DNA from: an uncultured Desulfobacteraceae bacterium
GTDB taxonomy: Bacteria > Desulfobacterota > Desulfobacteria > Desulfobacterales > UBA5616
Reading direction: 5' to 3'
DNA: 64,000 bases
Assembly (NCBI GenBank): GCA_964386565.1
Contig: CAYLRU010000007.1
Coordinates: forward strand, 39,504 to 103,503
Shown: one piece after another, positions 1-47,863 of the stretch
How positions within the stretch are numbered: position 1 is the stretch's first letter
Layout of the letters: each line of letters starts with the position of its first letter
Notes under the pieces: model-generated
What the model saw: only the letters and a program-made list of their open reading frames with translations
What the model was told of the DNA's origin: nothing
Databases searched by the model: none
Position numbers and translations under genes: made by a program

Positions 1-703
1 CGTACTCGCCATCCGGACCTAATTTAAAATTTTCAAGCTTTCTCGTTTTGGCCCTTGCAACTTCGATGATATCATCAAGCCTTTCAATATCCGATTTTCC
101 GCTGGTCGCAAAATAAATTTCACATTTTGTGATATGTTCACAGTTTTGTTTTATGGCATGGATAAGCCTTTTCCCAAGTTGTTGCAATGAAAACCCTTTC
201 CGGGCGGCATCCTTGCTGATCCGCGCCCATATGAGGTTTGGAACGCTTCGGATCATATAGCCCTCGGATTGGGCGGAAATATGGGCAACACTATCCATCT
301 GGGAAGCCGTCTTGTCAATAACCGCCGTTGCTTCCGGTGATGCCTCATCCGCGGATCGGCCTTTTATGGATGCGATAATGATCTGGCCAAAAGGCAGGCG
401 TTTTTCCCGTGTTTCCGAAATATCCGGCCCGACAAGGGTAATGCGGCCGTCATCAACAAGAACGTCGGCATGCGTAGCCAATGTCGCACAGCATGACCCG
501 ACGGAAGGATGCCCGAGTTCGATATGGGTATCCTCCTTTAAAATAATGCCGGCCGGTATTTTTTTCTTGACCGATATTCCGTTCGTGTTCATTTCCTGGA
601 TCTTCTCTTCTCCGGAAATTTTGCAGGAACGCGCCCGGCCTGACTTTCGTTTTTCATCAAACCAGTTTCTGATTTCGATAATGGTATCGTCAAATATATC
701 CAT
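1..703 (-). CDS. AcsB/CdhC-family (acetyl-CoA synthase-like) protein; N-terminal 234 aa only, the rest lies outside the window
   Basis: My own minus-strand translation from the ATG at 703-701 gives MDIFDDTIIEIRNWF...DGRITLVGPDISETREKRLPFGQIII...PNLIWARISKDAARKGFSLQQLG...IIEVARAKTRKLE. These blocks parallel the DGKIEVIGPDI / LPLGILV / NINWLRVSKDAVAKGF / EVAREKYKERD region of Moorella AcsB as I remember it. An in-frame TAA lies upstream at 742-740. The ORF is absent from the supplied track because it runs off the window edge. Confidence 0.5.
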   Translation of the reverse strand, partial: MDIFDDTIIEIRNWFDEKRKSGRARSCKISGEEKIQEMNTNGISVKKKIPAGIILKEDTHIELGHPSVGSCCATLATHADVLVDDGRITLVGPDISETREKRLPFGQIIIASIKGRSADEASPEATAVIDKTASQMDSVAHISAQSEGYMIRSVPNLIWARISKDAARKGFSLQQLGKRLIHAIKQNCEHITKCEIYFATSGKSDIERLDDIIEVARAKTRKLENFKLGPDGEY

Positions 704-1318
704 GAAGCCTCTCTGCTTTGGGTTTTTCAGACGAGTATGTTATACTCCCAAAATCATCTTTCAAAGTCAATCATTTAAATCTGGTCTCATAAATTTACAT
801 ATGAATTGTAATAGCTTGACAAGTTGATGCATCCCTTATGGGCCGAATATCCGTCGATCTCTGCAATGGTACCCAATTAAGATTACTATAGTATCTAATT
901 TAAAACTATCCAATTTAGATTTATTCACTATCCTGTTTTATTTTTTAACCCGCCAAAACTTATCGGGTTTAGTGGTAAGTAATTTTATTTAATTATTATT
1001 TTTTTCTTGACACCCCGGTTCTTTTTCGATAGCGTGAATTTGGATATTCAAATTAATTATAGACTATCAATCTCATTTTTTTGCTGACCGGAACTTCATT
1101 TTGAATACAGATACCTGTTAGTATCAATTTTTGCTGAACTTCTTTTACCATTTTTTGAGATATTTATTTTTTATCCGATTCCATACTGTTTTGAATAAAA
1201 CTTCTGCCGGCAAATATATCATTTGCCCATTTTCTGCTGCTGATTATTTTCAAGAGAAGAAAAGTGTCGGACTTCATTTTTCCATCACCAGGACTTATAA
1301 GTCAAAGGAGGTTTTAAC

Positions 1319-2446
1319 GTGAGCGCTTTTGAGGAATTAACAGCGGTTTCCGGATCACTGGAAAACAAGTATGTCAGTGAATGGAAAGCCCAGGGGAAAA
1401 AAGTGATCGGTTATGCCTGTACCTACCTTCCGGAAGAACTTCTGTACGCGGTCGACATATTACCCTACCGGATAACCGGACACGGCATATCGGACACATC
1501 CAAGGCGGACTCTTACATGTCCCGCGTCAACTGTAGTTTTGCCCGATGCTGCCTCGAGGCGGCATTGGAATCAAAGTATGACTTCTTGGATGGCGTTATA
1601 TTCATCAACGGGTGTGATCATATACGACGATGTTATGAAAACTGGTCCACCCACGAAACGGCGGCCCGGCCGTTTATGTACATGCTTCCTGTTCCCCATC
1701 GCATTTCAGAGCCCGGATATGTCTGGTTCAAGGAAGAAGTGTCCAGGATGAAGGAGGCCCTTGAAAAAAGGTTCGGCGTTAAAATAAGCCCTGACAAGCT
1801 GAAAGAAGCGATTTCCGTTTATAACGAGAACAGGAGACTGCTTCGGAAAGTTTACGACCTGAGGGCCTCAGATTCTCCGCCGTTTACCGGTGCTGAAGCC
1901 CTGACCGTTACCGCGGCTTCAACGCTGATGCCCAAGGAGGCGTTTAATCGTCTTTTGACCGATCTCCTTGAGGAGGCGGAGAAAAAACCCATGGAGAAAA
2001 ACAACAAAACCCGGCTCGTTATTGCCGGCAGTCTGATGGATGATCCGGAGTTTATTGAAAATGTGGAAAGCCTTGGCGCGGTGGTGGTATCAGACGCGTT
2101 ATGTTTCGGCGCCAGATCCATATGGAACTTAACGGCGGAAACCGACGATCCGTTTGATGCGCTTTGCCGACGGTACTACGAACACGAGCCCTGCCCCCGA
2201 ATGTCCGGTGAATACAAGCGAAGACTCGGTTTTCTGAGAGATCAGATTCAAAGAACCCGTGCCGATGGTGCCATACTGGAGTATATCAAGTTTTGCGATC
2301 AGCATGGAACGGACAATGCACTTTTAAAACACAGCCTTGAAAAGGAAAACATTCCGGTGATCGAGCTGGAAAGGCAGTACGGTCCCCTTGCCGATACCGG
2401 ACGTGTCAGAACAAGAGTTCAAGCTTTTCTTGAAAGGATTGGGTGA
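1319..2446 (+). CDS. Small catalytic subunit (HgdB / BcrC-BzdN type, HGD-D family) of an ATP-dependent radical CoA-ester dehydratase/reductase, module 1
   Basis: GTG start with an AAAGGAGG RBS. The N-terminus EWKAQGKKVIGYACTYLPEELLYA and the C-terminus FCDQHG...VQAFLERIG match the HgdB pattern (KYKAQGKKAIGCLPYYVPEELVYA...FCDPEE...ALEAFAESL). Conserved Cys residues are present (NGCDH, CFGA). Confidence 0.85.
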   Translation: MSAFEELTAVSGSLENKYVSEWKAQGKKVIGYACTYLPEELLYAVDILPYRITGHGISDTSKADSYMSRVNCSFARCCLEAALESKYDFLDGVIFINGCDHIRRCYENWSTHETAARPFMYMLPVPHRISEPGYVWFKEEVSRMKEALEKRFGVKISPDKLKEAISVYNENRRLLRKVYDLRASDSPPFTGAEALTVTAASTLMPKEAFNRLLTDLLEEAEKKPMEKNNKTRLVIAGSLMDDPEFIENVESLGAVVVSDALCFGARSIWNLTAETDDPFDALCRRYYEHEPCPRMSGEYKRRLGFLRDQIQRTRADGAILEYIKFCDQHGTDNALLKHSLEKENIPVIELERQYGPLADTGRVRTRVQAFLERIG

Positions 2447-3813
2447 TTAAAATGAGCATACAGCAAAATGCACTTGAAAGAATGGTTGCGGCCTTTAAAA
2501 TGGGGGCCGACATACCTGAAGACCTGGATTTTGAATCCCCTGAAGTAAAAATGCTTTTGGACAGCATGGAAGAACGACAGCGGAAGATGTTTTTAACCAT
2601 GGCCAAAGATCCGGATATTCGCAAAATGTCCAATGTATTTAATCGGGGAATGGGAAATTACTGGGAAAGCGTCCTCACTGCCAAGGACAACGGAAAAAAA
2701 GTGGTGTTTATTCCGTTTAATTTTTCTCCCGAGATCTTCTATGCCCTGGATATGATTCCGGTTGGAGTTGAAATCCTTGATACCATGACCATGACCCTTG
2801 AGGAAGGAATTCATCCTTACCTGGACCTTGCGGTTGAACGGGGGTTGCCGGACACCATGTGTTCCGCCCAACGGGCCGTTGTGGGCATGCTGGAGGCCGG
2901 TGTACTCGGAAAGCCGGACCTTCTTGTCAACGGGGCGCTGGGGGGTTGTGACCCGAATACCAAAGTATTCGAATATATGGGTGAAAAATTCGACATTCCC
3001 ACCCTTTTCGTGGATGTCCCCTATTACCATGACCGAAGATCCTTTAAATACTATGCAGAGGGATTTAAAGAAGTCGTCAAGGTGCTTGAAGAAATTTCAG
3101 GAAACAAACTCGACGAAGATCGTTTGCGGGAAGTTTGTACCCTCTCCAACCAGGCGAACGAACTGGCCATGGACATTACCGACCTCAAGCGGCATGTTCC
3201 CAACCCGGTTCCCAACTACTACAATATGAACCATCTGGCAACGAAACTGACCAAGCTGGGAACACAGGATGCGGTTGACTTTTATGAAATCGCTTTGGAC
3301 CGGTGCCTTGACCGGTTCAAGAAAGGAAAACATGTTTTGCCGGAAGAACGGATAAGGTTTATGTTCATGTATACGGGATTTTATTTCGATAACTCCTTTC
3401 ACGCATGGTTTCAGGAGGAAATGGGCGTATCCTATATTATGGATCTTCTGATCTTTGCAGATCACACGCCTTATATCGATACCCGGAATATGGATACCAT
3501 GCTATCCGGACTGGCCGCCGTCAACATGAATCTTCCCATGACAAGGCAGTTGAAAGGCAGTCATGACCTGCATGGCGGATGGGTCTCTGATCTGCTGTAT
3601 TATGTTGAAAAATACAAAGCCGATTGTATCGTTTTTTCCGGGCATGCCGCCTGTAAACAGGTTTGGGGCGTTTACAGAATCGTGGCCGACCGGATTCAAA
3701 AGGAACTCGGCGTTCCGGCATTGAGAATGGAAGTCGATGGATGGGATTCACGTATCACATCAATGGAGGTGATCCAAAACCAGTTGGAAGAATTTTTTGA
3801 AACGATTGTTTAA
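2443..3813 (+). CDS. Large catalytic subunit (HgdA / BcrB-BzdO type, HGD-D family), module 1
   Basis: Its GTG start overlaps the upstream TGA stop (GTGA at 2443-2446); an alternative ATG lies at 2452. It is 456 aa, co-oriented with its partner, and paralogous to 7917..9194 (C-terminal tails LRMEVDGWDSR...LEEFFETIV versus LFIELDYNDDR...IEDFFTTIMA). Confidence 0.85.
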   Translation: MIKMSIQQNALERMVAAFKMGADIPEDLDFESPEVKMLLDSMEERQRKMFLTMAKDPDIRKMSNVFNRGMGNYWESVLTAKDNGKKVVFIPFNFSPEIFYALDMIPVGVEILDTMTMTLEEGIHPYLDLAVERGLPDTMCSAQRAVVGMLEAGVLGKPDLLVNGALGGCDPNTKVFEYMGEKFDIPTLFVDVPYYHDRRSFKYYAEGFKEVVKVLEEISGNKLDEDRLREVCTLSNQANELAMDITDLKRHVPNPVPNYYNMNHLATKLTKLGTQDAVDFYEIALDRCLDRFKKGKHVLPEERIRFMFMYTGFYFDNSFHAWFQEEMGVSYIMDLLIFADHTPYIDTRNMDTMLSGLAAVNMNLPMTRQLKGSHDLHGGWVSDLLYYVEKYKADCIVFSGHAACKQVWGVYRIVADRIQKELGVPALRMEVDGWDSRITSMEVIQNQLEEFFETIV

Positions 3814-3833
3814 ATGAGGAGGAAGAAACCAAA

Positions 3834-4637
3834 ATGATTGTTGCCGGTTGTGATGTCGGTTCTTTGTCAGCCGAAGCCGTGATTATAGAAGACAATAAAA
3901 TTATTGCTGCAGAGATTATCAGGGTCAGACCCAGGGCGGAACAATCCGCCAAGGAAGTCATGGATTTGGCCTTAAAAAAACTTAATCTTTCCTATGAAGA
4001 CATTGACTACGTCGTATCCACCGGATACGGCCGTGAAACAATCCCGTTTTCCGATCATAATATCAGCGAAATTTCCTGCCATGGAAAAGGCGCCAATTTT
4101 CTTGTTCCCGGCATTCGCACGGTAATCGACATCGGCGGCCAGGACTGCAAAGCCATACGGGTTGATGAATACGGTGTTCTGGAAGATTTTGTCATGAACG
4201 ACAAATGCGCTGCTGGAACAGGACGATCCCTTGAGCTGATGTCACAGTATTTAGGCGTCCATTTTTCCGAGTTGGGCGGACTTGCCCAACAGGCGGAAAA
4301 GGCTATCACCATCACCAGCCAGTGCAGTATTTTTTCCGAGTTGGAAATCATGCATTACCTCATGGAAGACAAGAAGCCGGCTGATATCGCAGCGGGGATT
4401 TGCGAATCCATGGCTCGGCGGGTCAAAATGCTTGCCGGCCGTGTGGGAATTAAACCGGATATCGCCATTACAGGTGGTGTCTGCAAAAATAACGCCGTGG
4501 TTAAATATCTGGAAGAAATGCTGGATGTAAATTTTGTACCCTTTGAAGAAGACCCTCAAATAATCGGCGCCCTCGGCGCCGCCGTGTTTGCCGGGGAACG
4601 GTTCCAACGGTTATCCCGAAAAGCGCAAACCGCATAG
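3834..4637 (+). CDS. BcrAD_BadFG/HgdC-type ATPase (electron-activating subunit 1)
   Basis: AGGAGG RBS. It has the acetate/sugar-kinase fold signatures GCDVGS and IDIGGQD. The two cluster-ligand cysteines lie in NDKCAAGTG (Cys125) and TSQCSIFSE (Cys164), and GALGAA is near the C-terminus. Confidence 0.9.
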   Translation: MIVAGCDVGSLSAEAVIIEDNKIIAAEIIRVRPRAEQSAKEVMDLALKKLNLSYEDIDYVVSTGYGRETIPFSDHNISEISCHGKGANFLVPGIRTVIDIGGQDCKAIRVDEYGVLEDFVMNDKCAAGTGRSLELMSQYLGVHFSELGGLAQQAEKAITITSQCSIFSELEIMHYLMEDKKPADIAAGICESMARRVKMLAGRVGIKPDIAITGGVCKNNAVVKYLEEMLDVNFVPFEEDPQIIGALGAAVFAGERFQRLSRKAQTA

Positions 4638-4685
4638 GGGATGCATAATCTTTAAATAAGAAACGAATGAAAGGAGGTTCATAAA

Positions 4686-5471
4686 TTGTTTTATGCCGGA
4701 TGTGATCTGGGAACCATTTCGGCCAAGGCCGTTATTATCGAAAACGCTAAAATATTGGCCGTCAATATATTGCCCTATAAAAGCCTGCCCAGGCAGGCGG
4801 CAGTCAAGGTAATGGATAATGCCCTGGCCGAAGCCGGATTGACAAAGGATCAAATTTCTTACTGCCTGTCAACCGGATTCGGCAAAAAAGCCGTTCCCTA
4901 CGCCAACAGCGATATTCCGGAACTGATCTGTCTTAATCGGGCGGTAAAAGAACTGAATCCCGAAATCCGGACGGTTATTGACGGGGGCGGACAGAGCATA
5001 AAAGCCTTTAACATTAACAACATGGGCAAAATTTCCGCCTCAACGGCCAATGAAAAATGTGCCTCCGGGACCGGAAAATTCATGGAAGTCATGGCACAGG
5101 CACTGGAAATGCCCATAGAAGAACTGAGCGAGGCGGCTCTTTCCTCAAACAACCCCCTGCCGATTACAAGCCAGTGCGGGGTTTTTGCGGAAAGCGAAGT
5201 CATCACCCATGTCAATGAAGGCGAGGATCGCCTGGATATTTTCGCCGGTATTTCATTGTCAGTTGCCGGCAAGGTCGCCGGAACCGTAAGGCGAATCAGC
5301 CTGGATGACGCCGTAGCACTTGTGGGCGGAATGGCAAAGAACAAAATTGTTGTCCGGGATATACAGAAAGAACTGGGCATATCCCTGGCCGACTATGATA
5401 TGGATCCCCAAGCCGTGTCCGCTTACGGCGCCGCTCTTATGGCACGTGAAAAGACGGCGGGTTCGACATAA
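4686..5471 (+). CDS. BcrAD_BadFG/HgdC-type ATPase (electron-activating subunit 2)
   Basis: TTG start 8 nt after an AGGAGG RBS. Signatures are GCDLGT, IDGGGQS, NEKCASGTG and TSQCGVFAE. It is clearly a paralog of the preceding ATPase, not a copy of it. Confidence 0.9.
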   Translation: MFYAGCDLGTISAKAVIIENAKILAVNILPYKSLPRQAAVKVMDNALAEAGLTKDQISYCLSTGFGKKAVPYANSDIPELICLNRAVKELNPEIRTVIDGGGQSIKAFNINNMGKISASTANEKCASGTGKFMEVMAQALEMPIEELSEAALSSNNPLPITSQCGVFAESEVITHVNEGEDRLDIFAGISLSVAGKVAGTVRRISLDDAVALVGGMAKNKIVVRDIQKELGISLADYDMDPQAVSAYGAALMAREKTAGST

Positions 5472-5502
5472 TTTTTTAAAAACAACGCCCTTTGCAACAG
5501 AT

Positions 5503-6372
5503 ATGACCAAAAATCGATCTCTCATGATGATGGCCCAGCTTTCCGAGCGTTCCGGAATACCTGTATCAACCATTAAATACTACTTCAGGGAAAATCTTTT
5601 ACCCGGCGGTTTTAAGGTAAACAGGACAACCGTCTATTACGGGCAGGACCATATCAACCAGTTGCGGGCGATAAAACACCTGCAGAAAGAAGGTCTTTCC
5701 CTGCGCCGGATCAAATCCATTTTGAAAAATCAGCGTTCACCAGAGGATAAAGAAAATCAGACGCCTTCCGCCAGGAGGGAAAATATCATCGAGGCGGCCA
5801 TACCGCTCTTTATGGAACGCGGATTGGAGATGACGTCCATCACAGACATTGTAAAAGCTGCCCGCATCAGCCGGAACACGTTCTACCGGGAATTCAAAAG
5901 CAAGCGGGATGCTTTTGTTGCTTGTCTGGATAAGATGCTCAAAGACATGATCAATACGTTTAACGATGACATCCGCGGTAAGATGACGCATTTGGATGAC
6001 GGCATAAACAACGCATGGAATTTTTTGGGGATACAGTCGTCCTGGACAGACTTCATGAATCTGCTGGGTGCCACCATTGTCAACGATCCCCCGTTATTAA
6101 ACAAGATGCTGGATGACTTTATCGAACTTCGGGCCGGACAAATTTCCAAGGGGTTTGATCATTATATTCAACAAGGGCTTATAAGGCCTGTTGATACGCA
6201 ATTACTGGGGCTTATCGTCCTTGGAATCATTGATTATTGCAGTCGATTTATCCGAAGCAACAAATTCAGGGATGCCCACCGGATTTATGAAAAAGCGATT
6301 GATATCCTTATCAACGGAATCATGGTCAAATCGCATGGAAATTCCAGGCTCCCCCCACTTGATCGGCAATAA
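5503..6372 (+). CDS. Transcriptional regulator with fused MerR-type and TetR-type HTH domains
   Basis: Start chosen at ATG 5503 (MTKNRS...); the track ORF start at 5320 would overlap the ATPase gene. The MerR HTH is MMAQLSERSGIPVSTIKYYFRENLL...INQLRAIKHLQKEGLSLRRIKSIL. It is followed by the TetR HTH IIEAAIPLFMERGLEMTSITDIVKAARISRNTFYREFKSKRDAF and a helical C-terminal domain. Confidence 0.75.
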   Translation: MTKNRSLMMMAQLSERSGIPVSTIKYYFRENLLPGGFKVNRTTVYYGQDHINQLRAIKHLQKEGLSLRRIKSILKNQRSPEDKENQTPSARRENIIEAAIPLFMERGLEMTSITDIVKAARISRNTFYREFKSKRDAFVACLDKMLKDMINTFNDDIRGKMTHLDDGINNAWNFLGIQSSWTDFMNLLGATIVNDPPLLNKMLDDFIELRAGQISKGFDHYIQQGLIRPVDTQLLGLIVLGIIDYCSRFIRSNKFRDAHRIYEKAIDILINGIMVKSHGNSRLPPLDRQ

Positions 6373-6386
6373 AAGGAGGAATGTTC

Positions 6387-7643
6387 ATGACTTCAATAGC
6401 AAATCTCAGAAAAAAATACCTGGGTGCGATCGATGCAACAGACGAAGATATGCAGATCGTCAGTGCCGTCCGCGAGTACGTTGACAAGGAAATCATGCCC
6501 CGTCGCCAGGATCTGGACGGCGGATGGCACCGCGATGAAAAACTTGCCAAGGAGACGTTTGAAAAAGTACACAAGGGTCTCGTGGACATCGGCGTTCAGC
6601 GGGCCATTTACCCGGAAGAATTCGGAGGATTGGGTGTCAGCGGCGCGGCCAGTGAAATGATCTATGAAGAAATATCCCGGGGCGATGCAGGTCTTGCAAC
6701 GCATATGGGTATCATCAACTGGGTCATGATGCCGGCGCTGAGAGCCGGAAGAATGGATCTGTTGGAGGAATTCATTCCGAAGATCTGCGACAACAACCCT
6801 CATGGCTGCTGTATGGCCATCACCGAACCCTCCGGCGGGGCCAACTCGGAAGATCCGACCCAGCATGGACGAACCATCAACACCATTGCCGTACTCGATG
6901 GAGATGAGTGGGTCATCAACGGTCACAAGATCTGGCCCAGCGGAGCCAGCGTGGCGGATATCACGTACTGCACCATCTGTACCACCGACCCGGCCAAGGG
7001 AGATGAAGGGGTGGCGCTGATCTATGTGCCCCCGGATGCCAAGGGTATGACATTTTCAAAACCATTCCAAAAAATGGGTATGTGCTGGACAGACACGAAT
7101 ACGGAAATTTTTTTCGACAATGTGAGAGTCCCCAAGAAAAACCGTGTGGCCGGACCGGGGGAGGATGCAAAAATACTGCATGATGTCGTGGGGATGGGGC
7201 GTATCGGCACGTGCGGATTCGCCCTAGGCGCAGCCCAGGCCTGCCTGGAAATTGTTCTCAACTGGACAAAAAGCAGGGAAATCGCCGGAAAAGCGGTTCG
7301 TGCCCGCTCCCTTCATGCGGGAATTATCGGAGAGATGGCCCTGAAAATCGAATCGGCAAGGGCATATGCCATGCAGGTCAACCGGATGATCAGAAGCGGC
7401 CGGTTTGGCAGACCCGGAGAACCCCTGCTGCTGTCAAAATGCTCTGCAGCCAAAGCTTACGCATGCGATGTCACCCTTTGGGTGGCCAACAAGGCCATGG
7501 AATTGATGGGATCATACGGATTCGCATTTGATTACGATGTGGAAAAATATCTCCGCGATGTAAAAATACTTCAACTTTGGCTGGGAGGGCCTCAGCGGGC
7601 GATACTGGATACGGCATTGGGATATTATCAGTTTGAATGGTAG
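6387..7643 (+). CDS. Acyl-CoA dehydrogenase
   Basis: Typical ACAD length and blocks (AITEPSGGANS, KIWPSGAS, LQLWLGGPQR). ATG 6387 lies 7 nt after the AGGAGG at 6374-6379; the ATG at 6381 is too close to the RBS. Confidence 0.9.
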   Translation: MTSIANLRKKYLGAIDATDEDMQIVSAVREYVDKEIMPRRQDLDGGWHRDEKLAKETFEKVHKGLVDIGVQRAIYPEEFGGLGVSGAASEMIYEEISRGDAGLATHMGIINWVMMPALRAGRMDLLEEFIPKICDNNPHGCCMAITEPSGGANSEDPTQHGRTINTIAVLDGDEWVINGHKIWPSGASVADITYCTICTTDPAKGDEGVALIYVPPDAKGMTFSKPFQKMGMCWTDTNTEIFFDNVRVPKKNRVAGPGEDAKILHDVVGMGRIGTCGFALGAAQACLEIVLNWTKSREIAGKAVRARSLHAGIIGEMALKIESARAYAMQVNRMIRSGRFGRPGEPLLLSKCSAAKAYACDVTLWVANKAMELMGSYGFAFDYDVEKYLRDVKILQLWLGGPQRAILDTALGYYQFEW

Positions 7644-7647
7644 GAAG

Positions 7648-7779
7648 CTGTTTCAAAATCTCCCCTCAAACCGAAATGCGGTGGACCGAGACGTTCAATC
7701 CTCAAAATATGAGAATATTCCTGTAGTTGACCGCTTCGGTCCACCTTGATCCTGAATCCGATTGGAAGTTTTGAAACAG
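7648..7779. repeat. Intergenic repeat element, family A, complete copy (A1)
   Basis: Terminal inverted repeats CTGTTTCAAAA / TTTTGAAACAG, an internal 10-bp stem GGTGGACCGA/TCGGTCCACC and the core TTCAATCCTCAAAATATGAG. It is related to 60056..60191 (inverted) and 30014..30186. Confidence 0.7.
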
Positions 7780-7916
7780 TCTCAGGGTATTGCATTGGTC
7801 CAATTTTTCACTGATGATTGCAAATCATACAGCAAAAAAGCAACAACGCCCCTGATGCCTGAAGAAGATTGTCTGTTTCACCGGTTTTTTAAAAAAATAT
7901 GACGGGAGAATGATTT

Positions 7917-9194
7917 ATGCAAAAAGCATTTAAAAAAACCCGGGAAATGGTTGAGGGACTGGCAAAACCGTCTCTTGAATTTCTGAGCGCCATCGACGAC
8001 CCTGATATCAAACTCCAAATCCTGGCGCTGAAAGACTCCATCGGCCGAATGGAGGAACTGTTTGCAGCGGCGGAAAACCCGAATCAAAAAGTGGCCCTGT
8101 TTGAGTTCGGGTTGACGCCCCAGTTGTTTTACGCTTTTGACTGTGCGCCATTGTGCCTGGAAACATTTCCCATGCTGTTCACGGCCAGCAGAAAAGAAGT
8201 ATTTTATAAATTCGTGGAAAAGGCGGAATCATCCGGTTTGCCGTCTGATGTATGTTCCACGGATCGGTTTATCATGGGGGCGGCGCTATCCGGCGAATTT
8301 CCCGATAACGCTTTTTTCGTTACCTCTTCCGCCCCTTGCGACGGAACCCGCGTGGCATATCCCGTCATGAAAAGTGCCCTGGACATTCCCACACTTTTTA
8401 TTGAAACACCTTACACTTACGAAAAAGAAGCGGCACGCTGGTATGGGCAGCAAATCAAAAAGCAACTGATCCCGTTTTTAGAAGAGGTTACGGGAAAAAA
8501 GTTCGACCTTGACCGGTTTCGGAACATCATCGAAGAATCAAACCGGGCTTATGAACTCCTCGTTGATATTTCCGATGCTTACACATTAAAACCATCGCCT
8601 CTGCCGGCATCGCTGAGAGGATTTCCCTACATGAGCTTTATCAGCTCGGCAGGACATCCCAGGAATACCGAAAACACCGGTATTTTTCATCAAGAAGTCT
8701 TCCGTCGCGTTAAAAACGGCATTGTCAAGCAAACGGAAGAAAAGTATCGCGTACTGTGGGTGCATGTTCCACCCACATTTGACAATGAATTCTTTACGTG
8801 GATGGAAAACAAGCTTGGCGCATCCGTGATTACATCCATGCTGGCGGCAACACCGATTCTGCGTCCCATCGACACGACAAATCTCGATACCATGCTCGAA
8901 GGTTACGCGTGGCAGGGTTTGGATATGACCATGTCCATCATGCGGTTTGACACACGAAAATTTATTGAATATACCATGAATACATTTCATCAATATCAAT
9001 GCGACTGCCTTATCGTCACCCAGCACGTGGGGTGCAACAGCATCTGCGGTGCCGCCGGAATTATGCGTCGGTATCTCCGGGAAGAAGGAATTCCCACCTT
9101 ATTTATCGAGCTGGACTATAATGACGATCGGGTTTTGTCCGCCGAGCCGCTGCGAGAACAAATCGAAGACTTTTTTACCACTATTATGGCATAA
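7917..9194 (+). CDS. Large catalytic subunit (HgdA / BcrB-BzdO type), module 2
   Basis: GGGAGA RBS 7 nt upstream of the start. It is 425 aa and paralogous to 2443..3813. Confidence 0.85.
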   Translation: MQKAFKKTREMVEGLAKPSLEFLSAIDDPDIKLQILALKDSIGRMEELFAAAENPNQKVALFEFGLTPQLFYAFDCAPLCLETFPMLFTASRKEVFYKFVEKAESSGLPSDVCSTDRFIMGAALSGEFPDNAFFVTSSAPCDGTRVAYPVMKSALDIPTLFIETPYTYEKEAARWYGQQIKKQLIPFLEEVTGKKFDLDRFRNIIEESNRAYELLVDISDAYTLKPSPLPASLRGFPYMSFISSAGHPRNTENTGIFHQEVFRRVKNGIVKQTEEKYRVLWVHVPPTFDNEFFTWMENKLGASVITSMLAATPILRPIDTTNLDTMLEGYAWQGLDMTMSIMRFDTRKFIEYTMNTFHQYQCDCLIVTQHVGCNSICGAAGIMRRYLREEGIPTLFIELDYNDDRVLSAEPLREQIEDFFTTIMA

Positions 9195-9210
9195 AAAACG
9201 GGGAGTTATT

Positions 9211-10332
9211 ATGGACAGCCTGGAATATTTCAAAACAATGGCACAAAAATTATTCAACACCGAAGCCCGGTCCTGGAAAGAAAAAGGAGGACGTATCATC
9301 GGCATCCAGTGTTCCAGCATACCCGAAGAAGTAATCCACGCCGCTGGTATTTTGCCGACCCGGCTTCGTGCACCCGGATTACCGGACACCAAAAACGCGG
9401 ATGCCCACCTTCACCGGATTAACTGCTCTTACACCCGGTCGGTTTTGGAATACCTCCTGTTGGGCGAACTGGATTTTCTTGATGGATTTGTCGCTACGAA
9501 TACGTGTGATCACCACCTTCGTCTAGTAAATGAAGTAGAAGATAAATCCCATTTTTCATTCTTCCATTATTTCCAGATGCACCATACCATAACGCAGGGT
9601 GCTAAAGAATGGCTCATCCAGGAAATGAAAAATCTGATCCTGCAGTTGGAGAAAACGTTTAACATCACCGTTTCAGAAAACGATTTAAGGCACACCATAT
9701 CGGTTTACAATAAAACACGGCAGCTCATGGCCCGGTTAAACGATTTGAGAAAAAACACTCCCCCGCCGTTGACCGGTGCCGAATACATGCAAATCGCCCT
9801 TACCGGGATGTCTATTCCCCGTGAAATCTTTAACCAAAAGCTTGAAATCCTTTTGCCGGAACTCGAGAACCGCCGGGTTTCGGAAAAACATTTACCACGG
9901 CTTCTGATTATCGGAGGCGCCTGTGATTCACCCGAATTTATAGAATTCATCGAAAGCAAAGGAACGAACATCGTGGCGGACGGCATGTGTTTCGGCCTTC
10001 GTCACTATATGGGCGTTATCGATGAGGGGAAGGCCGACCCCATAGAGGCGATTGCGGACCGGTATATGACCCGGATCCCCTGTCCCTCCATCATCGACGG
10101 TTTTGACCGGACCTATGCTGTTCTTAAAGAAATCATTGAAAAACTGAACGTACAGGGTGTTGTCAGTGCCCGATTAAAATTCTGCGATCATTTCGCAGGT
10201 ATCCGGAAATTACTGGTCGACCAGTTGCGCCGGGATAACAGCGTCCCGGTGGTCGAGCTTGAACGTGAATACAACACAACCAAATCCGGCCAGCTCAGTA
10301 CGCGGATTCAGGCTTTTCTGGAACTGCTTTGA
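9211..10332 (+). CDS. Small catalytic subunit (HgdB / BcrC-BzdN type), module 2
   Basis: Start chosen at ATG 9211 (MDSLEYF...) after a GGGGAG RBS. Blocks: SWKEKGGRIIGIQCSSIPEEVIHAAGILP, NTCDHH, MCFGL, FCDHFAG...IQAFLELL. By eye it is roughly one third identical to 1319..2446. Confidence 0.85.
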   Translation: MDSLEYFKTMAQKLFNTEARSWKEKGGRIIGIQCSSIPEEVIHAAGILPTRLRAPGLPDTKNADAHLHRINCSYTRSVLEYLLLGELDFLDGFVATNTCDHHLRLVNEVEDKSHFSFFHYFQMHHTITQGAKEWLIQEMKNLILQLEKTFNITVSENDLRHTISVYNKTRQLMARLNDLRKNTPPPLTGAEYMQIALTGMSIPREIFNQKLEILLPELENRRVSEKHLPRLLIIGGACDSPEFIEFIESKGTNIVADGMCFGLRHYMGVIDEGKADPIEAIADRYMTRIPCPSIIDGFDRTYAVLKEIIEKLNVQGVVSARLKFCDHFAGIRKLLVDQLRRDNSVPVVELEREYNTTKSGQLSTRIQAFLELL

Positions 10333-11886: not shown

Positions 11887-12813
11887 TTATCCCACCCACA
11901 CGTTTCTTTGCCTTAAATTCTCATCTTTTATCTTTTCCTGCACCAACGGTCCGTGGTCCAGTAAAAAATCGCTGTCCGATTCACTCAGATACTGGTTCTT
12001 CAGTTCACTAATGATCTGCCGGCATATCTGCTCAACAATATCGGCTTTATTATCATAGTCCGTGGTGTTTACGATCTCGTTTATTTTATCATGACACCAT
12101 TTCCCCAATATGGGCAGATCTGCCAGTGCCAGGTGCATCCACTTAAAAAACGGCGTATATCGCTTATTCAACAGAAATACCATGGATATGGCATCCGAGC
12201 AGAATTTGGTTTGCGCATATAGGGCCGGAAAAAACGCTTTTCGTTTAATGCATCTTTGAAAATTGTACTGGCCAAACTGGGCAAGTGTCATGCATCGGGA
12301 AGCAATCTTTTTTAAACGGACGTCTTCCGGGTAGAATTCCATCAGTTTTTTACGCCACCTGCTGAATTTTTCATAAGGGTCATAAAAAACTTTTCCGTTC
12401 GTGCATGCCGCCAGACTGTTTTCCGGGATAAGAAACCATTCATCAAGCGTATCGGGTAAATGATCCAGACCTGTATATTGCTGATAAAACGCCGAAATAC
12501 GGAAAACACCGATCCTGCCGAATCCCCATTTACTGACTTTCCGGGGGCCATATCCCAGAAAAGATTGCGGCAGGGCAAATACGGCCTGCTCCAGATCTTT
12601 GCCGATGGCAAGGTAATCCGGATCATCCAGCCATAAACAAAACCCAGGACCCCAATCGTGATCTTGTGAAACAACGTCATCAAATCCAAAGCATTCCGAA
12701 CCGTCCCCCACCAAACCGGCTGCGATTTTGTCCGCATATACCTCAAATCTCTCCCGGATCAGCGGCAAACCATAGGTATTGAAATATTTCCCGGCCAGTT
12801 CAATACCTTTCAT
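11887..12813 (-). CDS. DUF4037-type protein with a polymerase-beta-like nucleotidyltransferase signature
   Basis: GLVGDGSECFGFDDVVSQDHDWGPGFCLWL resembles the GS...DxD NTase motif and the conserved DUF4037-family N-terminus as I recall it. It is co-operonic with the TPR, epimerase and DUF4125 genes. Confidence 0.6.
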   Translation of the reverse strand: MKGIELAGKYFNTYGLPLIRERFEVYADKIAAGLVGDGSECFGFDDVVSQDHDWGPGFCLWLDDPDYLAIGKDLEQAVFALPQSFLGYGPRKVSKWGFGRIGVFRISAFYQQYTGLDHLPDTLDEWFLIPENSLAACTNGKVFYDPYEKFSRWRKKLMEFYPEDVRLKKIASRCMTLAQFGQYNFQRCIKRKAFFPALYAQTKFCSDAISMVFLLNKRYTPFFKWMHLALADLPILGKWCHDKINEIVNTTDYDNKADIVEQICRQIISELKNQYLSESDSDFLLDHGPLVQEKIKDENLRQRNVWVG

Positions 12814-12819
12814 GACAGT

Positions 12820-13392
12820 CTACACTCCCATCCCGTTCTGTATGGCCCCTGTCAGGGCATTTATATTTTCCCTGGCAATTCCTGCTTTTTCAGTTTCATT
12901 TAAGGCATCGTATAAATTCAGGGCCAGGATGTACCAGGAAACAGCCGTTTTAGCATCACCGGATACAGCATGAATATAGGCGATATTGCTGTACTGGTTT
13001 GCAATCTGAAGGCCGTCTTTTATCTTTTCAAAAAAAGCCAGGGATTTTAGATACATGTCCACTGCTTTGTCGTAATCTTTGATATCACGATATACCGACC
13101 CGATATTTTGAAGCTGATTTGCCTGACCCACAGTATCATCTAACATCTTGTATTTCCGGTAGGCGTTCTCAAAGCTTTCCATGGCGCTGTTGAAATGACC
13201 GGTCTGAACATGGATAAGCCCCATATTGTTGTGGATCATGGCCAGTTGTTCGTCATCACCACCGGCTTTAAGAATTTCAAGACAATCCTGGTAGAGTTTA
13301 AGGGCATCTTCATATTCCTTGTTGGTTAAATGAGCGTGGGCCTGTTGACTCAGCAAAGTTATCTTATCGTCCCGGCTGTTTTCTTCCATCAT
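12820..13392 (-). CDS. Tetratricopeptide repeat protein
   Basis: Repeated 34-aa units (YEDALKLYQDCLEI, FNSAMESFENAYRKY, YDKAVDMYLKSLAFF, AKTAVSWYILALNLY). The start could be ATG 13392 or TTG 13410. Confidence 0.8.
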   Translation of the reverse strand: MMEENSRDDKITLLSQQAHAHLTNKEYEDALKLYQDCLEILKAGGDDEQLAMIHNNMGLIHVQTGHFNSAMESFENAYRKYKMLDDTVGQANQLQNIGSVYRDIKDYDKAVDMYLKSLAFFEKIKDGLQIANQYSNIAYIHAVSGDAKTAVSWYILALNLYDALNETEKAGIARENINALTGAIQNGMGV

Positions 13393-13584
13393 TGTTTTCC
13401 CCCATTCCAACCTCCTCCCATAAGGAAGGAAGGCTTTCTTTCAGTGTCTTTATAAACTCCCTAAAGGGATTTACAGGAAAATTCATGCCGAGTTAACGGC
13501 ACTGACTCAAAGACCGGAAAGCTCTTCTTTCCAACCCATAGAGCGAAATGAAACGGGCGAATAAAATAAAAACATCCCGACCCG

Positions 13585-15324
13585 TCATTTGATTGATCCG
13601 AGTATCCGCTGCCAGAGCAGATGTTCAAGCCCGTCTGCCAGATGATGAATGCTTTTTAAAAAATAGAGATGGCCACGGGGGAAAAATTCTCTCAAAAAAT
13701 CCCGGGTCTGGCGATTGCATCCGCACCCCAGCGTAAAAACATCGATCCCGTGCTTTCGGCAATAGTCAAGGGCGATACCCAGGCTTAATCCGCAATTTGC
13801 CGCACCGTCGGTAATATGGATGATCATACTGTTCTTGAATTTTTTATCGAGCAGGTTCGCCACAGCCATAATGGCCTGTCCTGACGGTGTCCGGCCCGAA
13901 GGCGTTACGGAATAGAGTTTTTTATCATGATACAACCGGGTAAGCGTACAAACCTGCCGTTCCGCACGATAGGCATAGATATCCAGCAGATTGCCATGGC
14001 CCTTTGCAGCAACGGCAAGGGAAACAAAGCTTTTTTCAGCAATTTCCCAGGGCCTTCGCAATCTCTTTTTTCCGGCCGTTGGTTCGTCTTTGCCGCTCAT
14101 TGATGCCGATGCATCCGCAATGATGCAGATTTGCCAGAATGCATCCTTTCCCGGACCTTGTCTGTTTTTAAACACTTTACCGTCCAAAGGTACACGATAC
14201 AATCGCAACGGATCCAGCTTTCCTTCACCCAGCCCGTGCCTGATGCGTCTTCTCCGAACCTGCCGGATTAAATGTTCCTGTTTCTTAAATATTTTCTTCA
14301 TCTGCCGAACCTGGACAGCGTCAGGTTGGATATCGGAAAGAACCTCTCCTTTTTCAATTCGCGTCTCCATGGGCCGGGCACCGGGTTCTTCAACAGCAAC
14401 AGCCATACCCTGTATGGGGGGATTTTCTTCATCCAGCATGGCGCTGACATCCTCTGCCAGATCCGGACGAAGGCCTTCTGCAGCTTCAGTTTCACCGGGG
14501 TCATCGGGTACGTCTTCCCCGGCACCGTTTTCTTCAAGATCCACCCTTCCCTTGGGACCTGTTTCGTCATAAAGATTGACGGCATCGGGATTTAACGTGA
14601 ATGTTTCCCAATGTGAAATGACGTGCTCAATGTCCTGCCACATTTGCCGGTAAAGGTTTTTTCTCTCTTCCCGCCTGGTGCTGATGGATCGGCGGTTCGC
14701 CACCGACCGGATACGATGTAAATACTTTTCCAATATTGTCAGAATCTCTGCATAGTAGGGATGAGGGCTTTCAGGAACCTCTTTTATGATTGATTGTTTT
14801 TGCCAGACGGCAAAAACACTTTCCGCAGTAGGAGGAAGGGCGGGGTCCCGTTTCTCTTCAGAAAACGCCTGATAAAAATAACGTGATAAATAAAGCGCCC
14901 ATATCCTGTCTTTTGCCAGCTCACTGATAAAAATATTTTCCGAGGCTGTTACGAGATTTTCTAGATATGGCTTTGTGCGGTCATTGATGCCATGGGCCGA
15001 TTTCAGTGTTTTTTCCTTCACCCATTCATGGAATTCCATGGCCAGAAACCCTTCCCGCACCACTTGTCCCACCAGTATATCGTAAACATCGTGGGATATG
15101 GGATAATTGCCTTTCACCCTTTCCGGATCCAGAATGATAAACCGATTCTCATTTTCCGCCATCCCCTTCCAGAATACCGGTTTCACGTTCCTGCCGAGAT
15201 GCCCGATGACCTTTCGCATGGCCCTTAAGGCCAGGGCGAGTTCGGCGGCTTCGTTCCGGGATCGGTTGATCCGCCAGTATTTTGAATAAGATGCCGATAT
15301 GTTTGCTTTTGTTTCCATGATCAT
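13585..15324 (-). CDS. CobT-like von Willebrand factor A (VWA) domain protein
   Basis: The C-terminal VWA domain has MIDAS residues DASASMSG ... TPSG ... DGAAN. A central acidic linker is present (EENGAGEDVPDDPGETEAAE). An ATGA overlap joins it to the upstream AAA+ gene. Confidence 0.8.
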   Translation of the reverse strand: MIMETKANISASYSKYWRINRSRNEAAELALALRAMRKVIGHLGRNVKPVFWKGMAENENRFIILDPERVKGNYPISHDVYDILVGQVVREGFLAMEFHEWVKEKTLKSAHGINDRTKPYLENLVTASENIFISELAKDRIWALYLSRYFYQAFSEEKRDPALPPTAESVFAVWQKQSIIKEVPESPHPYYAEILTILEKYLHRIRSVANRRSISTRREERKNLYRQMWQDIEHVISHWETFTLNPDAVNLYDETGPKGRVDLEENGAGEDVPDDPGETEAAEGLRPDLAEDVSAMLDEENPPIQGMAVAVEEPGARPMETRIEKGEVLSDIQPDAVQVRQMKKIFKKQEHLIRQVRRRRIRHGLGEGKLDPLRLYRVPLDGKVFKNRQGPGKDAFWQICIIADASASMSGKDEPTAGKKRLRRPWEIAEKSFVSLAVAAKGHGNLLDIYAYRAERQVCTLTRLYHDKKLYSVTPSGRTPSGQAIMAVANLLDKKFKNSMIIHITDGAANCGLSLGIALDYCRKHGIDVFTLGCGCNRQTRDFLREFFPRGHLYFLKSIHHLADGLEHLLWQRILGSIK

Positions 15325-16319
15325 GCATTGCCAGGCAGGTAGAGAAGGTATTCTCCCCTGTCGGCTTCCGTTTCCCCGGTTTCCACCTGGATTGAAAGCA
15401 GCAAGGATTCTAAGGTATCCTTGGAAATTTGAAGACTGTAGACCAAGGCTTCCCTCAGGGAAGCCCCCATGGCCACCAGCTCGGCAATCATCAGGCTATG
15501 ACGGATGGAAATACGCATTTCGATCTGGTCATTGTTTCGAATCCGGTTGACCATTTTCAATATCTGGTCGGCTTTGAGCCCATCAATGCCGGTTTTCCGG
15601 ATTAATACTTCTTTTTCGACATCATGGGGCAGGTATTCAAGGTGAACCCTGTAAAACCGGTCTTTTAACGCCTCATCCAGGTCATCCGTACCACTGAACG
15701 TCTCGCCTTCATTCATAGTTGCGAAAAACATCACACCCGGCGCCACACGAATCATGCCCAATTCATCAATCCATATGCTCCGGTCTTCCGACAGGACGCT
15801 GAACAGCTCATTTAATGCATGGGGACTTTCGGAGCGGTTGATCTCTTCCAAATGGATGACGCATCCAGGCGTCTGGATAGCTTTGGGAAATAAAAATTCC
15901 TGATAATACGTTTCGCCTGACCTGAGTCGCTGCTGCCCGAACAATTGACCGGCCTCAAGCAGCAGACCCACTTGAAAAGTTGCCATGGGTCTTTTGTAAA
16001 TATAGGCAAACTGCCTGACCATGGAAGATTTTCCGCATCCCTGACTTCCCGTTATCAGGATGTTCACCGGATGCTTTTCAGACATGCGGTTGAATCGTGC
16101 GAGATTATCCATGTCCTCTTTAAGGATGAAAAAATTCGGATCGGGATTGGGAATTTTCAACTGGCTGGCCGTATCGATCATAATAGGAGGGTCCTTTATA
16201 GTGGCCACTTTCCATGAAAGCAGGCCTGAAGGGCGGTTGAAAACAAAATCGTTTAATATGTTACCGGAAAAAAGCGGGATATAACTGATGCGGCGTCGTC
16301 TTATTTTACCGGACGCCAT
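15321..16319 (-). CDS. CobS-like AAA+ ATPase (AAA_5 / MoxR-related)
   Basis: Walker A ITGSQGCGKS, Walker B VIHLEEIN, sensor region FFATMN...DEALKDRF. The N-terminal extension (IPNPDPNFFILKED) resembles the CobS lead-in. Confidence 0.85.
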   Translation of the reverse strand: MASGKIRRRRISYIPLFSGNILNDFVFNRPSGLLSWKVATIKDPPIMIDTASQLKIPNPDPNFFILKEDMDNLARFNRMSEKHPVNILITGSQGCGKSSMVRQFAYIYKRPMATFQVGLLLEAGQLFGQQRLRSGETYYQEFLFPKAIQTPGCVIHLEEINRSESPHALNELFSVLSEDRSIWIDELGMIRVAPGVMFFATMNEGETFSGTDDLDEALKDRFYRVHLEYLPHDVEKEVLIRKTGIDGLKADQILKMVNRIRNNDQIEMRISIRHSLMIAELVAMGASLREALVYSLQISKDTLESLLLSIQVETGETEADRGEYLLYLPGNA

Positions 16320-16363
16320 ACCGGCGCCGGAATTATGATTCAGCTCTTTCAGGACAGCCGGCT

Positions 16364-17125
16364 TTACTTCATGCCTCTTTCCTTTTTTATTTCTTCATAC
16401 GCAGCCTGGATTTCCTGGAATTTTTCACTGGCAAACCGGGTGAATTCCTCCGGCAACCCTTTTGATGCGATCTTGTCCGGATGAAAATCATTGACCAGCT
16501 TTCGATACCGTCTTTTAATCTTCTCATCCGAATCTTTTGCATCACATCCCAAAACCGCATATGATTTATCTGAAACCCCGATATATTTTTGGCAAACCGC
16601 TTTATAGTATTCGTGGCCAAGTTGAAAAATATTCAACGCGGAAAGAATCAGTTTTTCTTCACTCTCATTCATCCTGCCGTCCGCCGTTGAAACCCGTACG
16701 AGAATATCGATCATCAGTTCCAGGAATTGCGGTTGATTTTTAAATTCGGCATAAAATTGATGGGCAAAATCTTCAAACCGCTGGTTGGATTCCATGGCGG
16801 TGTAGAAAATGTTCCATGTCACGTTCCGGCCGTACGAATCCAGATTCAGATCCCGGGCCATAAATTGTTCCACGGCATTCACTTCTTCTTTTTTTACCTG
16901 GCCGTCGGCATGAACCAGTTTGGCCAGCATGGAAAAGGCAGCCACATAAAAGGTCAGTTGCGTGGATTCCCCATGTGACAGGCGTTGCCGCGCGATGCCC
17001 TCGTCCAGCTCACCGGATTTATCAAATACATGTCCGAATGCAGCCCCTGCAATGGCGCCCAGGGGACCACCGATGGCAAACCCGAGGGTGCCACCCACAA
17101 TTTTACCCAGCACACCCATGATCAT
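16364..17125 (-). CDS. djlA: Co-chaperone DjlA (TM segment, TerB domain, C-terminal J domain)
   Basis: Gly-rich TM segment GVLGKIVGGTLGFAIGGPLGAIAGAAFG, then a TerB-like middle region. The C-terminal J domain is YAVLGCDAKDSDEKIKRRYRKLVNDFHPDK. The start is at 17125 or 17119. Confidence 0.85.
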   Translation of the reverse strand: MIMGVLGKIVGGTLGFAIGGPLGAIAGAAFGHVFDKSGELDEGIARQRLSHGESTQLTFYVAAFSMLAKLVHADGQVKKEEVNAVEQFMARDLNLDSYGRNVTWNIFYTAMESNQRFEDFAHQFYAEFKNQPQFLELMIDILVRVSTADGRMNESEEKLILSALNIFQLGHEYYKAVCQKYIGVSDKSYAVLGCDAKDSDEKIKRRYRKLVNDFHPDKIASKGLPEEFTRFASEKFQEIQAAYEEIKKERGMK

Positions 17126-17329
17126 TATCCTCTGAAACGGTAATTTACTTCTAACCCGCAAACAGGTCGTCAAATAAACCTCATGCCCTTCAATTATTAA
17201 AATATCCTTTTTCTGTCAACCATCTAATCCGTCAAAGACGGGGGCTGGTATGCATGGACGTCCTGTTTCGCCGGTCAGTTTTTTTATTTGGGATAACAAC
17301 GATTTTATTGTCCGGCGTCTTCAACCGGG

Positions 17330-33988: not shown

Positions 33989-34015
33989 CCCCACCATTCA
34001 GGAGAAAGCAACCCC

Positions 34016-39388: not shown

Positions 39389-39398
39389 TGTTCCCTCC

Positions 39399-40406: not shown

Positions 40407-40423
40407 ATCTGATAAAACTCCCT

Positions 40424-45124: not shown

Positions 45125-45182
45125 TTATATTCCTCCTCCTTCTAAATCTCTGATTTTCACAGCTTCCGAATCTTCCCTGACG

Positions 45183-46417: not shown

Positions 46418-46511
46418 GATCTCTTCCTTTTTTTCGAAACCGATTCCGGGCAAATTTTAAGTGAGCTTCTTATTCATTTGTCTTTCATGACGTTCTCCTG
46501 CAGTTGCGATC

Positions 46512-47762: not shown

Positions 47763-47863
47763 AAGCAAAAGACTCCCTTCTGACGGTTACACGTTAAAAT
47801 CCCGAACCCATACGCCTCGTTTACAATTCACGATATACGCCCAATATCCAAACGCCTGATTCC

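Follow-up and report, generated by a model that had tools for sequence, protein, structure and literature searches.

Here, we describe a cluster of eight genes from an uncultured Desulfobacteraceae bacterium, a relative of sulfate reducers, located at positions 1319-10332 of a 64,000-nucleotide (nt) stretch of contig CAYLRU010000007.1 (this whole stretch is referred to below as the window). The cluster encodes two pairs of catalytic subunits and two ATPases of the benzoyl-coenzyme A (CoA) reductase/2-hydroxyacyl-CoA dehydratase (BCR/HAD) family of radical enzymes. A preliminary description of the same DNA had read it as a small and a large catalytic subunit, two BcrAD/HgdC-type ATPases, a regulator, an acyl-CoA dehydrogenase (ACAD) and a second catalytic pair in inverted order. 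This reading is borne out by Pfam and by the listing of open reading frames (ORFs), which confirm all eight genes at their coordinates. We lean towards viewing the locus as an uncharacterised, deep-branching subfamily of BCR/HAD radical enzymes built on the plan of the BZD-type benzoyl-CoA reductase.

All eight genes lie on the forward strand. The small subunit of module 1, S1 (1319..2446; 375 amino acids (aa); BzdN-like, Pfam HGD-D 331 bits), is followed by the large catalytic subunit L1 (2452..3813; HGD-D 194 bits), by A1, an HgdC/MbdQ-like ATPase with canonical motifs (3834..4637; 267 aa; Pfam BcrAD_BadFG 205 bits), and by A2, a divergent second ATPase (4686..5471; 261 aa; BcrAD_BadFG 146 bits). 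A MerR-TetR fusion regulator (5503..6372; 289 aa; Pfam MerR_1 and TetR_N) and the ACAD (6381..7643; 420 aa; Pfam ACAD N, M and C domains) come next, and module 2 closes the cluster with its large subunit L2 (7917..9194; 425 aa; HGD-D 201 bits) and small subunit S2 (9211..10332; 373 aa; HGD-D 276 bits). The HGD-D domain is thus found in all four catalytic subunits, at 194-331 bits. The gaps of 20 nt (L1-A1) and 48 nt (A1-A2) given previously are exact. The GTGA overlap placed at 2443-2446, on the other hand, is probably not real: although the L1 ORF opens at GTG 2443 (456 aa), its homologues are 453-454 aa long with a nearly invariant Met4, and the true start is most likely ATG 2452 (453 aa), 5 nt past the S1 stop. 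Similarly, S2 has an ORF that opens at 9049 and a conserved start codon further in, ATG 9211, which lies 16 nt past the end of L2. The catalytic pairs had been judged about one third identical by eye, which agrees well with the measured values (S1/S2, 35%; L1/L2, 28%); A1 and A2 are 38% identical. L1 of the window is ~95% identical to its counterpart in a Desulfobacterales metagenome-assembled genome (MAG; locus L004).

Cluster ligands and family placement of the subunits

BzdN binds, through six cysteines, a [8Fe-9S] double cubane in which two electrons delivered by the ATPase module are proposed to be collected, and BzdO holds an aqua-[4Fe-4S] cluster via Cys95, Cys128 and Cys380 (PMC11971306). 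Six cysteines of S1 (C34, C72, C99, C262, C292 and C326) and six of S2 (C34, C72, C99, C260, C291 and C325) fall in the ligand columns of BzdN and DCCP and are conserved in 22/22 and 10/10 sequences, respectively. HadC lacks two of these six cysteines, with Pro and Ala in their place, and MbdN lacks three. We predict that S1 and S2 are carriers of [8Fe-9S] double cubanes. The DCCP motif comprises seven cysteines (PMC7317905), of which the seventh, between ligands 1 and 2, is not found in S1 or S2.

The ligands of the large subunits, counted over 80-117 orthologues, are likewise kept. C140, C169 and C404 of L1, invariant among its orthologues, and C113, C141 and C373 of L2 (117/117) align with the three BzdO cysteines, and a three-cysteine, open-site [4Fe-4S] cluster is predicted for both proteins. 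An invariant glutamate (E110 in L1, E82 in L2) aligns with HadB Glu55 and would be the equivalent of BzdO Glu65. The preliminary description had left the iron-sulfur ligands of module 2 to be checked, and they are present in both of its subunits. A fourth invariant cysteine precedes the third ligand by 9-11 residues (C395 in 80/81 L1 sequences; C362 in 117/117 L2 sequences), at a position where BzdO and DCCP have none.

None of the catalytic subunits, the ATPases or the ACAD reaches an NCBIfam equivalog cut-off. The top match for both small subunits is the double_cubane model (S1, 203 bits against a cut-off of 350; S2, 201 against 350), and S1 also scores 184.6 of 453.8 on bzdN and 182 of 700 on HadC. 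For the large subunits the shortfall is greater, with L1 at 78 of 487 on BcrB, 68 of 750 on HadB and 32 of 448.6 on bzdO, and L2 at 40.9 of 448.6 on bzdO; A1 scores 208.1 of 380.2 on bzdQ. Canonical assignments to BzdNOPQ, BcrABCD, HadBC or DCCP were rejected on these grounds, all scores being far below the cut-offs. Among solved structures, the nearest to S1 is BzdN (183 bits), followed by HadC (140), DCCP (107) and MbdN (104). L1 and L2 match every solved structure weakly, a profile of the L1 family reaching 72.6 bits with HadB and 48 bits with BzdO. Predicted models (L1, AlphaFold pLDDT 81; L2, pLDDT 90) gave Foldseek TMq values to HadB, MbdO and BzdO of 0.71-0.74 for L1 and 0.76-0.80 for L2, and the fold search revealed no preference of either protein among these three references, from which both are equidistant at 16-21% identity. 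The two modules are far closer to each other than to any reference (L1 against L2, 194 bits; S1 against S2, 259 bits), and a neighbour-joining (NJ) tree places S1 and S2 in sister clades with BzdN as their next relative. Since their mutual scores exceed those with any reference and the NJ tree makes them sisters, modules 1 and 2 are, judged from sequence, old paralogues inside one new clade. Whether the two pairs belong to a known clade of standard stoichiometry had been raised earlier as a point against an unusual arrangement. No characterised clade takes them in, no equivalog cut-off being reached, but the S1-L1-A1-A2 core does have the ordinary class I stoichiometry.

Each ATPase carries both cluster cysteines in the motifs reported previously (NDKC/TSQC in A1, NEKC/TSQC in A2). 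C125 and C164 of A1 are invariant in 25 A1-type orthologues and both cysteines of A2 in 22 A2-type orthologues, and all align with the cysteines of HgdC, HadI, MbdP and MbdQ. A1 scores almost equally with MbdQ (209 bits) and HadI (208 bits), and A2 is more divergent. The clearest difference between the two lies in the DxGGQD motif, which is kept in 24/25 A1-type sequences and also in MbdQ, HgdC, HadI and DCCP-R. Its last aspartate is lost in 22/22 A2-type sequences (mostly to Ser) and likewise in MbdP (to Thr). Among solved structures, this loss is seen only in MbdP, one partner of the MbdPQ heterodimer, and in no homodimeric activator. In the NJ tree, A1 and A2 form sister clades that do not pair with MbdQ and MbdP, respectively, and the A1 and A2 trees have parallel topologies. 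The duplication that gave rise to them is accordingly assigned, from these trees, to the S1-L1-A1-A2 family itself and is not one held in common with MbdP/MbdQ.

Gene order and distribution in relatives

A contig scan covering one genome per GTDB species identified 21 related loci, all from MAGs, in Desulfobacterales, other Thermodesulfobacteriota/"Deltaproteobacteria", Abyssobacteria, Spirochaetales and Dehalococcoidia; a Hydrogenedentota genome with the system came from the protein collection. At 90% identity, L1 homologues form more than 90 clusters and L2 homologues more than 120. No cultured host is on record, the habitats being those of sediment and groundwater anaerobes.

The S1-L1-A1-A2 core is present in every locus with enough sequence, and two ATPase genes were found in 25/25. 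It is a self-standing unit of ordinary class I stoichiometry in the N-O-P-Q order of BzdNOPQ and thnBCDE. The strict adjacency of A1 and A2, together with the fixed asymmetry of their DxGGQD motifs, favours an A1A2 heterodimer, and we infer such a pairing rather than two homodimers.

Most loci carry the core without L2-S2, which is thus an accessory paralogous dimer, a client rather than an equal partner. Seventeen L2 loci are flanked by 4 kb or more on each side, and in this tally of flanking sequence L2-S2 lies beside the core in 8 and alone in 9. An A1/A2-type ATPase without module 1 was found near L2-S2 in none of the 17 and in none of the 9 stand-alone loci, in keeping with the earlier remark that module 2 has no ATPase of its own. 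Where the two are linked, L2-S2 adjoins the core in at least three different gene orders and in several lineages. The window, L001 and L004 share the order S1-L1-A1-A2-(regulator)-ACAD-L2-S2. In L005, L006 and L038, A2 is followed by L2-S2-ACAD; in L010, from Abyssobacteria, L2-S2 lies ~1.5 kb downstream of the core; and L030 reads ACAD-S1-L1-A1-A2-L2-S2. In L032 (799-8897) the order is S1-L1-ACAD-L2-S2-A1-A2, such that the ATPase pair follows module 2 and not module 1. A metagenome contig, L035 (1855-12335), has S1-L1-ACAD-L2-S2-S1'-L1'-A1-A2, that is, three dimers (two of the module 1 type and one of the module 2 type) and one A1-A2 pair. The two parts also occur in the same genome without being linked. 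MAG CAYZMM01 carries them on separate contigs, the core on contig 1 (L016) and L2-S2, intact, on contig 14 (L029), and on the closed Hydrogenedentota chromosome CP070779 they are ~78 kb apart.

An ACAD is a neighbour in 16 of 30 clustered loci, including two (L026 and L028) that hold L2 without module 1. The closest solved relatives of the window ACAD are butyryl-CoA dehydrogenases (4l1f and 5ol2_C, ~150 bits). A FabK/NMO-like enoyl reductase of the flavin mononucleotide type occurs in 8 loci.

Proposed mechanism and alternative explanations

On balance, we are somewhat inclined to see in this cluster an acyl-CoA reductase system of BZD-like type that depends on ATP and in which one heterodimeric ATPase works with several catalytic dimers. 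A1 and A2 would form a heterodimeric ASKHA ATPase with one [4Fe-4S] cluster bridged by two cysteines from each subunit. A low-potential donor would reduce A1A2, and ATP hydrolysis would drive the electron uphill into a catalytic heterodimer, in which the small subunit (S1 or S2) would store electrons in its [8Fe-9S] double cubane and the large subunit (L1 or L2) would convert an acyl-CoA-type substrate via radical intermediates at the open iron of its [4Fe-4S] cluster. S1-L1-A1-A2 would be a self-sufficient core, and L2-S2 a paralogous dimer for another substrate or step that docks transiently to the same A1A2. The neighbouring ACAD may have as its substrate an enoyl- or acyl-CoA that the modules produce or use up.

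A two-electron, ATP-stoichiometric reduction is favoured over a redox-neutral dehydration, by analogy, because of the two distinct ATPases and the double cubanes. To our knowledge, two distinct ATPase subunits are known only in ATP-stoichiometric reductases. Sharing of the ATPase is mechanistically plausible, because in BZD-type enzymes contact between the ATPase and the catalytic dimers has been predicted to be no more than transient (PMC11971306). The earlier proposal that one ATPase module serves both catalytic modules gains comparative support from the absence of separate ATPases near L2-S2 (0/17), the linked gene orders, the co-occurrence of L016 and L029 in one MAG and the three dimers of L035; it is still something that we infer, and the fused activase of two loci, described below, speaks against it.

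Several observations weigh against this interpretation. There is no ferredoxin or other electron-donor gene in the cluster. HadB gives L1 a slightly higher score than BzdO does, and dehydratase operons, too, have an ACAD beside their catalytic genes. BzdO His131 is not kept, being replaced in the hidden Markov model alignment by an invariant Asn172 in L1 and by Thr144 (or Gly143) in L2. The active-site residues do not separate a reductase from a dehydratase, since the glutamate and the three cysteines are common to HadB and BzdO and the His131 position is unlike either. Dehydratase or hydratase chemistry therefore retains some probability, given the HadB similarity, the ACAD coupling and the missing histidine, and the preliminary description was right to leave both substrate and reaction type open. 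With regard to sharing, a dedicated ATPase for module 2 could be encoded at a distance in the same genomes. In CP070779, S1 (143 aa; L002, 9567-9998) and S2 (287 aa; L025, 11304-12165) look truncated, which could mean either that the system is decaying or that the assembly contains frameshift errors. In L054 (4780-9195, reverse strand) and L055 (12203-16594, reverse strand), a fused activase of 1463 aa with two BcrAD domains and DUF2229 is convergent to a stand-alone L2-S2 and may, in that lineage, be the ATPase that partners this pair instead. Finally, L2-like genes (~50-53% identity) occur without S2 downstream in L026, L040, L046, L047 and L050-L052, and represent either a singleton sub-clade or incomplete contigs.

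The two ATPases might instead be homodimers of the HgdC type, A1A1 serving module 1 and A2A2 serving module 2, in which case the window would simply hold two ordinary activator-plus-dehydratase systems side by side. We regard this as quite improbable. A2 stays with A1 and module 1 (25/25) and is never seen with an unlinked L2-S2 (0/9), L035 has three dimers for its two ATPase genes, and the uniform loss of the DxGGQD aspartate from A2 (22/22) has its only parallel among solved structures in MbdP. These points have to be set against the presence of two ATPase genes and two catalytic dimers in the window, the retention of both cluster cysteines by each ATPase, a duplication that is specific to the family and not common with MbdP/MbdQ, and at least two genomes with module 2 elsewhere though their core locus lacks it, a co-occurrence that one-to-one pairing would fit.

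The locus could also encode a pair of 2-hydroxyacyl-CoA dehydratases (or, in reverse, hydratases) working with an enoyl-CoA reductase or ACAD as in the had, lcd and fld systems, where ATP would be catalytic and prime one recycled electron. We consider this unlikely, if appreciable. Like the (R)-2-hydroxyisocaproyl-CoA dehydratase of C. difficile (HadBC/HadI; PDB 3O3M, 4EHT), the locus has the fold (TM 0.73-0.80), the three-cysteine cluster, the glutamate, an A1 no further from HadI (208 bits) than from MbdQ, and, as in the had operon, a coupled ACAD. The L1 profile is best against HadB (72.6 bits; BzdO, 48), and the HadC model gives S1 182 bits. In 16 loci there is an adjacent ACAD, and in 8 a FabK-like enoyl reductase. 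However, HAD enzymes have a single homodimeric activator, whereas two distinct ATPase genes are always present here, and HadC, without two of the six double-cubane cysteines kept by S1 and S2, binds a [4Fe-5S] cluster. Scores on the HadB and HadC equivalog models fall four- to tenfold short of the cut-offs. In the window, the only genes for a 2-hydroxyacid dehydrogenase or a CoA-transferase are 24-34 kb from the cluster, with neither in or beside it, and none was seen in the Pfam tables of the related contigs examined. All characterised dehydratases that we know of have a single activator gene, and one related locus provides the contrast internally: in L012, a HAD-style trio of small subunit, large subunit and single activator (14091-17242) lies directly downstream of S1-L1-A1-A2, is 29-42% identical to the cassette proteins, and has an ATPase that groups with HgdC, HadI and MbdQ. 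Less probable still is an ordinary class I aryl-CoA reductase, orthologous to the benzoyl-, methylbenzoyl- or tetrahydronaphthoyl-CoA enzymes, with a duplicated catalytic dimer. The N-O-P-Q gene order, the two ATPases, a double-cubane small subunit with BzdN as the nearest solved relative of S1, and the annotation of L2 homologues by the Joint Genome Institute as "benzoyl-CoA reductase subunit B" all fit such an enzyme, but the scores do not (bzdN, 185 of 454; bzdO, 32 of 449; bzdQ, 208 of 380; BcrB, 78 of 487). L1 and L2 share no more than 16-20% of their residues with BzdO and MbdO, and BzdO His131 is not conserved. Neither the window nor the related loci showed a gene for a ferredoxin, a dienoyl-CoA hydratase or a ring-cleaving hydrolase at a distance of up to 10 kb from the cluster, and the locus does not resemble the 22-gene thn operon with its highly bzd-similar tetrahydronaphthoyl-CoA reductase genes.

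BzdNOPQ of Aromatoleum sp. CIB (PDB 8S02; PMC11971306) shares with the locus the small-large-ATPase-ATPase order with two different ATPases, the six-cysteine double-cubane small subunit and three-cysteine [4Fe-4S] large subunit, and, it is thought, a transient association of ATPase and catalytic dimers. The locus differs from it in missing the cut-offs widely, in the distance of L1 and L2 from BzdO (~17-19% identity), in the change of His131 to Asn (L1) and Thr (L2), in lacking a ferredoxin and benzoyl-CoA pathway genes, and in having a conserved ACAD neighbour and a second (in L035, a third) paralogous catalytic dimer. The 3-methylbenzoyl-CoA reductase MbdONQP of Thauera chlorobenzoica (PDB 9G87, 9GAI) likewise has a heterodimeric ATPase in which MbdP, like A2, lacks the DxGGQD aspartate, and a large subunit of similar fold (MbdO, TM 0.71-0.77); it is, however, a permanent heterotetramer, and MbdN, with only three of the six cysteines, has no double cubane. 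DCCP and its ATP-driven reductase partner DCCP-R from Carboxydothermus hydrogenoformans (PDB 6ENO, 7YYL) share the six ligand cysteines of S1 and S2, but DCCP is a homodimer with a seven-cysteine motif and a homodimeric reductase, whereas S1 and S2 pair with a three-cysteine large subunit and two different ATPases. The tetrahydronaphthoyl-CoA reductase (thnBCDE) comes from Desulfobacterota-type anaerobes, has the same four-gene order and is of the ATP-dependent class I type; the Thn proteins are reported to be close to bzd-type BCRs and belong to a 22-gene, beta-oxidation-like operon with a ferredoxin, none of which is found at the locus.

More tentatively, and with less confidence than in the reductase assignment itself, we can imagine a hub-and-spoke arrangement in which one A1A2 injector docks in turn on two or three double-cubane dimers and, together with the ACAD, drives successive low-potential steps on a CoA ester, in a clade so far restricted to uncultured anaerobes of several phyla. 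Unusual radical chemistry has come to light in every characterised branch of the BCR/HAD family, with potentials that approach or exceed the limits of the biological redox window: the Birch reduction of arenes, dehydration via ketyl radicals and the reduction of small molecules at double cubanes. Orphan clusters are already numerous in the family. We found no account in the literature of the S1-L1/L2-S2 clade, nor of any class I ATPase module that is shared. Public databases label the homologues "2-hydroxyacyl-CoA dehydratase" or "benzoyl-CoA reductase subunit B". Neither label is supported, and it is thus unsafe to infer anaerobic aromatic degradation from such labels in MAGs. The locus adds a well-conserved new branch with a distinctive architecture to the BCR/HAD family. 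If our interpretation is correct, a class I-type ATPase module common to several catalytic modules would be seen here for the first time in nature, probably along with a new substrate chemistry, and the locus would be a second enzyme system besides BzdNO to tie double-cubane subunits to an acyl-CoA-linked pathway. A costly ATP-coupling module that can be shared between catalytic units would also bear on the evolution and engineering of such systems.

Neighbouring genes and the wider window

Divergent from S1, on the reverse strand, a six-frame translation reveals a CdhC-like protein truncated by the window edge (2..739; Pfam CdhC, 54 bits). Across lineages, the protein beside the cassette is ~280 aa long and resembles acetyl-CoA synthase in the middle domain alone, with a Cys-rich C-terminal tail, and the NCBIfam match covers only residues 18-184 of CdhC. 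In the first set of loci this protein occurs in 8 and a CooC/MinD-like P-loop ATPase in 7, and both were also seen in L035, L038 and L059. Orthologues that cluster with the window copy are found in L001, L004, L005, L006, L014, L024 and L030 (region 12417-14143). The CdhC-like protein and the ATPase may assist the system in maturation or as electron donors.

Within the cluster, the MerR-TetR regulator is, among related loci, confined to the closest relatives, L001 and L004. Between the ACAD and L2 lies a spacer of 273 nt (7644..7916, forward strand) for which RNA folding gives a long nested hairpin (-74.8 kcal/mol, z = -3.4). The matching gap is 17 nt in L001, a 92%-identical relative, and the spacer appears to be a lineage-specific insertion; no second copy, as expected of a repeated mobile element, was found in the window. 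A promoter and terminator scan gave the same counts as shuffled sequence, so no operon boundaries can be called.

Other genes of CoA metabolism lie well away from the cassette. No crotonase-type hydratase was detected among the Pfam-scanned window ORFs of at least 180 aa, which were all but a few of that size. The statement that the window contains no 2-hydroxyacid dehydrogenase needs a small correction, as a GlcD-type oxidase linked to flavin adenine dinucleotide (34016-35422) lies 24 kb away in an unrelated cluster (32360-36860, forward strand) together with a glycerol-3-phosphate dehydrogenase-like DAO protein and an FGGY kinase. The distant CoA-transferase noted earlier is indeed there: a family III enzyme (43916-45124) in a reverse-strand cluster (43916-49549) with a 4Fe-4S protein, a transporter of the major facilitator superfamily and a thiamine pyrophosphate enzyme, the last most like benzoylformate decarboxylase (405 bits against a cut-off of 493). 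The cluster resembles a CoA pathway of the 2-oxoacid or oxalate-like kind; by its position, it is unrelated to the cassette. On the reverse strand at 37664-41293, 27 kb from the cassette, a 574-aa ACAD, extended at its C terminus, precedes EtfA and EtfB and is a possible electron-transfer partner for CoA-ester redox steps. Neither of these two clusters (27-38 kb off) recurs within 10 kb of the cassette in related loci.

Genes downstream of the cassette (DUF4125, an epimerase, DUF4037, a TPR protein and a MoxR/VWA pair) were considered as clues to the substrate, as were the Hydrogenedentota gene contexts, and both were set aside as unrelated to CoA metabolism. The window contains two sets of MoxR-type AAA proteins (AAA_5/CbbQ_C), at 13585-16319 (reverse strand) and 55972-60014 (forward strand), each beside a large protein. 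Pfam finds a VWA domain in the large protein at 58281-60014 and no family match for the one at 13585-15324, although its apparent counterpart in L001 shows a faint VWA similarity; in that locus the MoxR/large-protein pair lies 3 kb upstream of S1.

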